Below are positions 23,830 to 24,141 of a DNA stretch of 64,000 bases, piece by piece. The notes beneath the pieces are model-generated. The model searched no databases. It worked only from the letters and a program-made list of their open reading frames with translations, and was not told where the DNA came from. The stretch lies in the NCBI RefSeq assembly GCF_965641715.1, contig NZ_OZ282453.1. One strand, written 5' to 3'. This DNA comes from Escherichia coli (GTDB taxonomy: Bacteria; Pseudomonadota; Gammaproteobacteria; Enterobacterales; Enterobacteriaceae). How positions within the stretch are numbered: position 1 is the stretch's first letter; the number at the start of each line of letters is the position of its first letter. The translations under genes and the position numbers were made by a program.

Positions 23830-24137
23830 ATGACTCAAGACTATGAACTGGTTGTGAAAGGAGTCCGTAATTTTGAGAATAAAGTTACGGTAACTGTAGC
23901 CTTACAGGACAAAGAACGCTTTGACGGTGAAATTTTTGGCCTGGATGTCGCCATGGACCGTGTTGAAGGAGCTGCGCTGGAGTTTTATGAGGCAGCAGCC
24001 AGAATGAGCGTCCGGCAAGTCTTCCTGGAAGTAGCAGAAAAATTGTCAGAAAAAGTTGAGTCTTATCTGCAGCATCAGTACTCCTTTAAGATTGAAAATC
24101 CTGCCAATAAGCACGAGCGTCCTCATCATAAATATCT

Positions 24138-24141
<4 letters not shown>
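23830..24141 (+). CDS. YdfR-position hypothetical protein (103 aa) between holin and endolysin
   Basis: ORF tightly packed between holin stop and endolysin start (ATGA overlap); size and position match Qin ydfR (identity from synteny only). Confidence 0.55.

Follow-up and report, generated by a model that had tools for sequence, protein, structure and literature searches.

What is a 103-codon open reading frame doing between the pinholin and the endolysin of an Escherichia coli prophage, and does it belong to the lysis machinery that surrounds it? The question arises from the window, by which we mean the whole 64,000-nucleotide stretch of contig NZ_OZ282453.1 (assembly GCF_965641715.1) analysed here. 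A preliminary description, made from the sequence alone, had picked out in this window an extra gene tightly coupled to its neighbours and free of any signal peptide or TM segment, and had proposed that it either modulates lysis timing or is an unrelated moron. The physical part of that description held throughout. The ORF runs from the ATG at 23830 to the TGA at 24139-24141, the flanking pinholin and SAR endolysin are both matched by Pfam, the start lies 4 nt from the pinholin stop, and the end overlaps the endolysin start as ATGA. Neither a TM segment nor a signal peptide is present in the product, whose top 19-residue Kyte-Doolittle mean is 0.67; the holin reaches 1.72 and the SAR segment 1.67. 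The "extra" gene is likewise real; what had been missed is its identity, since it is the annotated K-12 gene ydfR of the family DUF1327.

The product of the ORF matches Pfam DUF1327 (PF07041) with 173.5 bits (cut-off 25; E 1.1e-51) over profile positions 1-93 of 93, and 101 of its 103 residues (98%) are identical to those of E. coli K-12 YdfR (b1555, UniProt P76160), which is encoded by the Qin cryptic prophage. The two differences are D37 and R59 of K-12 YdfR, which are G37 and M59 in the window. The ORF is ydfR, a member of a small Enterobacterales-prophage family. K-12 Qin and the window share the order essQ/essD, ydfR, rrrQ, rzpQ/rzoQ, cspI, together with the length of YdfR and the ATGA overlap; the window prophage, unlike K-12 Qin, has retained genes for terminase, portal, capsid and tail. 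RefSeq genomes annotated essD-ydfR-rrrQ-rzpQ match the cassette at 99.8% identity. With one of them the window is colinear at 95-99% identity in two stretches, the first reaching from hokD to the end of the lysis cassette, with a brief interruption behind gnsB, and the second extending from terminase to tail. This colinearity shows that the window holds a less-decayed Qin-type lambdoid prophage. As an annotated K-12 y-gene of a named Pfam family at its usual place, the gene was already known, and nothing new comes from this window in that respect. The features of the locus, and those of the comparison loci (handles beginning with L) for which coordinates apply, are collected in the table.

Table. 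Features of the ydfR locus in the window, and corresponding features in comparison loci. Coordinates are those of the window unless a locus is named.
Feature	Position	Strand	Evidence and remarks
Two prophage tRNA genes	21134-21206, 21310-21383	+	3' of the Q antiterminator gene; tRNA-Ile, tRNA-Arg in a near-identical genome
STnc100-type short RNA	22083..22273	+	Rfam RF02076, 114 bits, E 4.6e-25
Tandem pair of lipoprotein genes (142 and 131 aa)	22384-22812, 22963-23358	+	Pfam TolA, E 2e-23 and 1e-14
Terminator-like hairpin and T-run	23484..23501	+	Consensus scan, in which terminator-like sites did not exceed the number expected from shuffling; after the two TolA-C lipoprotein genes, just 5' of the holin
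S21-type pinholin (essD/essQ-like), 71 aa	23610..23825	+	Pfam Phage_holin_2_1 PF04971, E 8.9e-36; PHROG holin families
AGGAG Shine-Dalgarno sequence	23816-23820		Within the final pinholin codons
ydfR, 103 codons / 103 aa	23830..24141	+	ATG-initiated; TGA at 24139-24141
ydfR codons 1-72, conserved DUF1327 core	23830..24045	+	Pfam PF07041; AlphaFold2; alignments; dN/dS
ydfR codons 73-103 and stop, variable tail	24046..24141	+	pLDDT <50 for residues 79-103; variant classes
Endolysin leader	24108-24140; L003 2845-2873; L099 2700-2723
rrrQ-type SAR lysozyme (endolysin), 177 aa	24138..24671	+	Pfam Phage_lysozyme PF00959, E 6.2e-24
i-spanin (rzpQ-like, DUF2514)	24668..25165	+	Pfam PF10721, E 3.6e-38; PHROG Rz-like spanin
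o-spanin (rzoQ-like lipoprotein)	24861..25115	+	+1 frame inside the i-spanin gene; lipobox LTSC; ORF 24819-25115; probable start at 24861, placed after the 84-aa K-12 rzoQ
cspA-type thermoregulator 5' UTR	25371-25787	+	110 bits
cspI-like cold-shock gene	25529-25741	+	Next to the spanin genes on their 3' side, an order shared with K-12 Qin
Convergent partner genes	L006 2744-3040; L087 696-1001; L101 2749-3048; L105 2740-3042	-	Also in L091, L093, L096, L088, L098

The pinholin carries an MKSM dual-start motif (Met1/Met4) and shares 99% identity with the essD annotated in L001. Its TAA is followed by TCCA and then by the ydfR ATG, and the AGGAG sequence embedded in its end, 9 nt ahead of that ATG, is the probable site for ydfR translation. 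The lysozyme is 99% identical to K-12 RrrQ, with a Gly/Ala-rich, weakly hydrophobic, SAR-like N-terminus and an E35-x8-D-x5-T catalytic motif; no Shine-Dalgarno sequence was found within 30 nt upstream of its start. In base composition ydfR differs from both neighbours, its GC3 of 0.40 falling below those of the holin (0.53) and the lysozyme (0.50). The consensus scan gave no promoter-like or terminator-like sites within or flanking ydfR. A permissive-E Rfam search of the window and six variant loci revealed no hidden sRNA, such as the Stx-phage anti-sRNAs, in or beside ydfR; its only matches were STnc100, tRNAs and the cspA thermoregulator, none of them at ydfR. Cassette decay was observed in the Qin-type loci L019 (IMG/VR; 3309-4757) and L023 (2781-2993), as an insertion of ~1.4 kb in the endolysin or a truncated holin.

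Related lambdoid loci also have an STnc100 element 3' of the Q antiterminator gene and 5' of the lysis genes, and L006 and L046 each show a match to the family ahead of their cassettes. From this position the element is probably the late-promoter (PR') leader at the start of a transcript carrying ydfR, a reading that would put ydfR on the late transcript. Relying on the holin Shine-Dalgarno sequence and on late transcription, ydfR is probably not expressed in the lysogen. Between STnc100 and the lysis cassette, the genes with TolA C-terminal domains occupy the slot that is held by stx in Stx phages and by cspB/cspF in K-12 Qin; their products could serve as decoy TolA domains against colicins or filamentous phages. 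K-12 has cspB upstream of essQ and in the same orientation, and in the window the TolA-C genes replace it. That position of cspB may explain the reported cold induction of K-12 essQ-ydfR-rrrQ.

Structure prediction, which the preliminary description had suggested as a check, gave a confident core. The AlphaFold2 model has pLDDT values of 80-94 over residues 1-70, with strands at residues 5-14, 18-27 and 33-43 and a helix from residue 50; the core is predicted to be a soluble fold of three antiparallel strands and a long helix. The start of the helix bears the motif [FY]-Y-E-x-x-A (residues 52-57), of which Y53 is invariant and E54 nearly so in the family alignment, and this motif together with the hydrophobic pattern of the strands makes up the family-wide signature. 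The pI is 4.6 for the window core and 8.1 for the window tail, with a median of 4.9 for the DUF1327 family. For codons 1-72, the median dN/dS across 36 distinct intact alleles (443 allele pairs) is about 0.28, compared with 0.07-0.17 for the holin and mostly 0.01-0.13 for the lysozyme, which shows that ydfR is under moderate purifying selection, looser than that on the lysis genes. Together, the DUF1327 match, the hundreds of homologues, this dN/dS value and the confident core establish the ORF as a real protein-coding gene, beyond a chance reading frame.

The remainder of the protein varies. Residues 73-99 of the window protein match the start of the linker in longer forms of 174, 206 and 243 aa, the divergence from these long forms sets in directly after 'RPH' on entering the conserved endolysin leader ATAAATATCTATG, and the last 4 ydfR codons are part of that leader. 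This arrangement marks the 103-aa allele as a deletion derivative, which appears to have kept the core and lost both the C-terminal extension and the convergent partner gene of other variants. Among 78 scorable loci, ydfR occurs in length classes of 72, 103, 104, 114, 116, 169, 174, 206 and 243 aa (a 287-aa DUF1327 form is also in the database), and the gap between ydfR and the lysozyme gene ranges from an overlap to +448 nt. Pfam returned nothing above threshold on the long C-terminal extensions. Disrupted alleles also exist, with nonsense mutations in L033 and L035 and frameshifts in L041 and L042.

The rrrQ-type endolysin leader, ATAAATATC[T/C]ATG, is A/T-rich, has no Shine-Dalgarno sequence and is kept in every ydfR-containing cassette and variant. 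In phage 933W, which has no ydfR, the start of endolysin R takes the very position of the ydfR start elsewhere, 4 nt behind the S stop, and R uses a GGAG Shine-Dalgarno sequence in the final holin codons; where ydfR is present, that site would serve ydfR. The initial ~6 endolysin codons differ between 933W and the ydfR-containing cassettes, marking a recombination junction. A consequence in cis is visible from this comparison: ydfR would take the holin-embedded Shine-Dalgarno sequence, and the endolysin would be left with an SD-less leader, ATGA-joined in this allele.

Of 5426 complete E. coli genomes, at least 3646 (about two thirds) contain the core DNA of ydfR, and its copies in E. coli number ~4,900. 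The preliminary description had proposed conservation across 21-like lysis cassettes as a further check. Of 86 related E. coli/Shigella-type loci, 85 have a scorable junction, and in each of these ydfR stands 4 nt behind the stop codon of an S21-type holin; the holins are 79-99% identical. Where the fetched stretch extends far enough, a 177-aa lysozyme with 88-100% identity lies downstream. Among GenBank phages, an S21-type holin is present in 438 records and DUF1327 in only 100 (~23%), and both 933W and phage 434 lack ydfR. Beyond these phages, an exhaustive profile search of 1.84 billion representative proteins yielded 94 matches at E up to 1e-3, which makes DUF1327 a very small family.

Distant members of the family, 71-76 aa long and ~25-35% identical to YdfR, have hosts that include Sodalis ligni, Serratia, Superficieibacter, Cronobacter and Yersinia rohdei. 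Reciprocal tblastn searches confirmed two of these members (E 4e-7 and 5e-6). The short genes represent 13 distinct loci, 12 of them outside E. coli and never between holin and endolysin. Where their flanks are readable, and positions are given for those loci only, the gene lies between gpM and gpL (L087, L093), between gpI and gpJ (L091, L092), directly 3' of a gpI-like gene (L101), upstream of gpL (L089, L090), between the tail chaperone and tape-measure genes (L096, L097), or, in L105, behind a Q-like gene and ahead of an unrelated holin and a different endolysin. The thirteenth locus is E. coli phage Evi, which has a 72-aa DUF1327 gene and a phrog_25324 partner inside its lysis cassette. 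The same 72-aa domain thus seems to occupy other late-operon junctions in other genera, and such varied slots suggest that it travels as a small module, of which the holin|endolysin junction is merely the E. coli slot.

Carriage by 100 of the 438 phages, the direct S-R joint of 933W, the low GC3, the variable gap to the endolysin and the non-lysis slots of the relatives all argue that ydfR is probably a moron-like passenger in an insertion hot-spot between holin and endolysin, and not a component of the lysis machinery. The two alternatives of the preliminary description part at this point: the moron is much the better fit, supported by the absence of the gene from about three quarters of the phages, by its base composition and by the slots of its relatives, and lysis timing is linked to it by the cassette address only. 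Like the lambdoid morons (lambda bor/lom, the stx genes, HK97 gp15), ydfR is an optional gene of deviant base composition between conserved late genes, and it also moves between late-operon slots; unlike them, it comes without a dedicated promoter or terminator in the window.

A second feature, seen in 12 of the 13 short-form loci, is a convergent ORF (70-186 aa) that terminates 11-49 nt past the DUF1327 stop. These partners fall into the families phrog_25324, phrog_10490, a 70-aa family and phrog_18578. Specifically, the DUF1327 subtype GEIL/GEIF pairs with phrog_25324, the 76-aa form ending in A-A with the 70-aa partner, and the type P0161/P0173 with phrog_10490. The phrog_25324 partners are 57-65% identical between loci, and their cognate DUF1327 genes only ~30-50%; the pairs of Evi and L087 are related, with partners 61% identical. 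In E. coli cassettes the partners are phrog_2572-type, a convergent ORF of 91-111 aa being found in 19 of 78 loci, and 54 of the 78 carry a solo ydfR. The window has no convergent partner: the endolysin follows directly, and reverse-strand ORFs reach only about 37-41 aa. Database searches gave little for either half of the pair. No NCBIfam model covers YdfR or the partners, an HMM search of PDB sequences produced no match for the DUF1327 family or a partner, no likeness of YdfR in sequence or structure to any solved structure was detected, and PADLOC returned no defence match for YdfR, its long forms or the partners, bar one marginal hit (E 8e-4). As far as our searches show, the convergent-partner module and its subtype co-variation are undescribed.

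The only experimental data that we found on the function of YdfR are those of Göpel et al. (RNA Biol 2026; PMC13232886). In that work, bacterial two-hybrid screening against RNase G as bait yielded a fragment comprising YdfR residues 1-72 on three occasions, and the signal of this fragment was still higher with RNase E than with RNase G. Full-length YdfR was positive only with Rne1-597, and not with full-length RNase E or with shorter catalytic constructs (PMC13232886). When Strep-YdfR was purified from crude lysate that had received no nuclease, Rne1-598-FLAG co-eluted, and an RNA bridge to RNase E is therefore possible; DNase-resistant nucleic acid, or RNA, also came through the purification with Strep-YdfR (PMC13232886). 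Overexpression of YdfR in K-12 caused no growth defect and changed few transcripts, and K-12 ydfR itself is essentially silent, with almost no RNA-seq reads under standard growth (PMC13232886). Additionally, the envelope-leakiness screen of Paradis-Bleau 2014 includes the delta-ydfR Keio mutant among its supplementary hits; we suspect that this phenotype arises because the kan cassette drives polar expression of the downstream SAR endolysin.

Taking the genomic context and this literature together, we tentatively favour a reading that, as a whole, falls a little short of an even chance: YdfR would be a late cytoplasmic passenger that associates with RNase E and tunes late RNA turnover, not lysis timing. 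The protein would be made late in infection alongside the lysis proteins. Its acidic three-strand-plus-helix core, judged from the work on the K-12 orthologue, could serve as the interaction module for the catalytic half of RNase E or for bound RNA. YdfR might dock on membrane-bound RNase E or on its RNA substrates and tune RNA turnover late in infection, and the timing of holin firing would not be under its control. Phage-encoded modulators of RNase E are exemplified by T4 Srd, T7 gp0.7 and phiKZ Dip, of which Srd binds the N-terminal catalytic half of the enzyme. YdfR is like Srd in being a small phage or prophage protein with a reported association with that half (PMC13232886); it is unlike Srd, gp0.7 and Dip in being the product of a late gene, not an early one, and its overexpression changed few transcripts. 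No homology of YdfR to Srd, Dip or gp0.7 was found. Against the RNase E model stand its single-paper support and an acidic domain that is not an obvious direct binder of RNA. The constant 4-nt spacing after the S21-type holin in E. coli could reflect a holin-linked function, and the delta-ydfR mutant is among the envelope-leakiness hits.

The convergent genes raise another possibility, which we consider unlikely, namely that YdfR is the orphaned half of a two-gene module. DUF1327 would then work with the convergent gene, for example as a late binder or neutraliser of a lysogen-expressed partner, and the window copy would be a relic or have a secondary activity. The regular presence of the convergent ORF at the short-form loci favours this, as do the tracking of the DUF1327 subtype by the partner family, the recurrence of the pair in different slots (between holin and endolysin in Evi, between gpM and gpL in L087, and ahead of another holin in L105), the E. 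coli cassettes with a convergent ORF, and the window allele itself, a deletion derivative without a partner-sized reverse ORF. The solo forms tell against it: they are the majority in E. coli and are under purifying selection (omega 0.22-0.30 for the window against L059 and L003), and the solo YdfR of K-12 has a reported host target (PMC13232886). The partner families also lack any PADLOC, NCBIfam or PDB match. In a broader and improbable version, Enterobacterales prophages would carry a mobile unit of two genes in which DUF1327 is the constant member, acting as a late switch that neutralises or redirects a convergent, subtype-matched and probably lysogen-expressed partner, possibly via RNase E and antisense overlap, and the solo ydfR of the window would be a domesticated remnant still targeting RNase E. 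Soluble lysis regulators and antiholins such as P1 LydB and T4 RI/RIII offer a different comparison, since YdfR too is a small non-enzymatic protein from a lysis cassette, encoded beside the holin. YdfR could be a cytoplasmic regulator specific to pinholin/SAR-endolysin cassettes, one that attaches to the still-tethered SAR endolysin or to the pinholin's cytoplasmic tail and alters the timing or sharpness of lysis triggering. The near-constant junction with the S21-type holin and the 177-aa SAR lysozyme next to it, the co-translation with the lysis genes and overlap with the endolysin start, and the envelope-leakiness hit are all consistent with such a role, which we nevertheless hold to be quite improbable. 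Most phages with the same holin type, 933W and phage 434 among them, have no ydfR, and the relatives in other genera sit in tail clusters, far from any holin. Unlike LydB, RI and RIII, YdfR has no PHROG 'lysis' homology, no periplasmic targeting and homologues outside lysis cassettes; the at least one TM or SAR segment by which a holin or antiholin is recognised is also absent from it. Moreover, overexpression in K-12, where essQ and rrrQ are present, brought no growth defect (PMC13232886), nonsense and frameshift alleles are found among the loci, and the Keio phenotype may stem from the kan cassette, as suspected above.

Finally, the gene could matter in cis, as a spacer whose translation sets endolysin output by termination-reinitiation at the ATGA, with a dispensable protein. 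The ATGA overlap of the window fits this, as does the displacement seen on comparison with 933W, where the holin-embedded Shine-Dalgarno sequence serves the endolysin, whereas with ydfR the leader ATAAATATC[T/C]ATG is SD-less in every variant. In most variants, however, the endolysin starts 50-450 nt past the ydfR stop, which means that translational coupling is not general, and no RNA structure sequestering the endolysin start codon was found (z about 0). We therefore regard a purely cis-acting role as very improbable, and retain the late RNase E-associated passenger as our working reading.

For annotators, ydfR is probably a movable passenger and is not to be labelled a lysis or antiholin gene. 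The findings direct experiments to RNase E, to late RNA turnover and to the convergent partner genes. They concern a gene that is among the commonest E. coli prophage genes of unknown function, and one that many Stx1- and Stx2c-converting phages carry.
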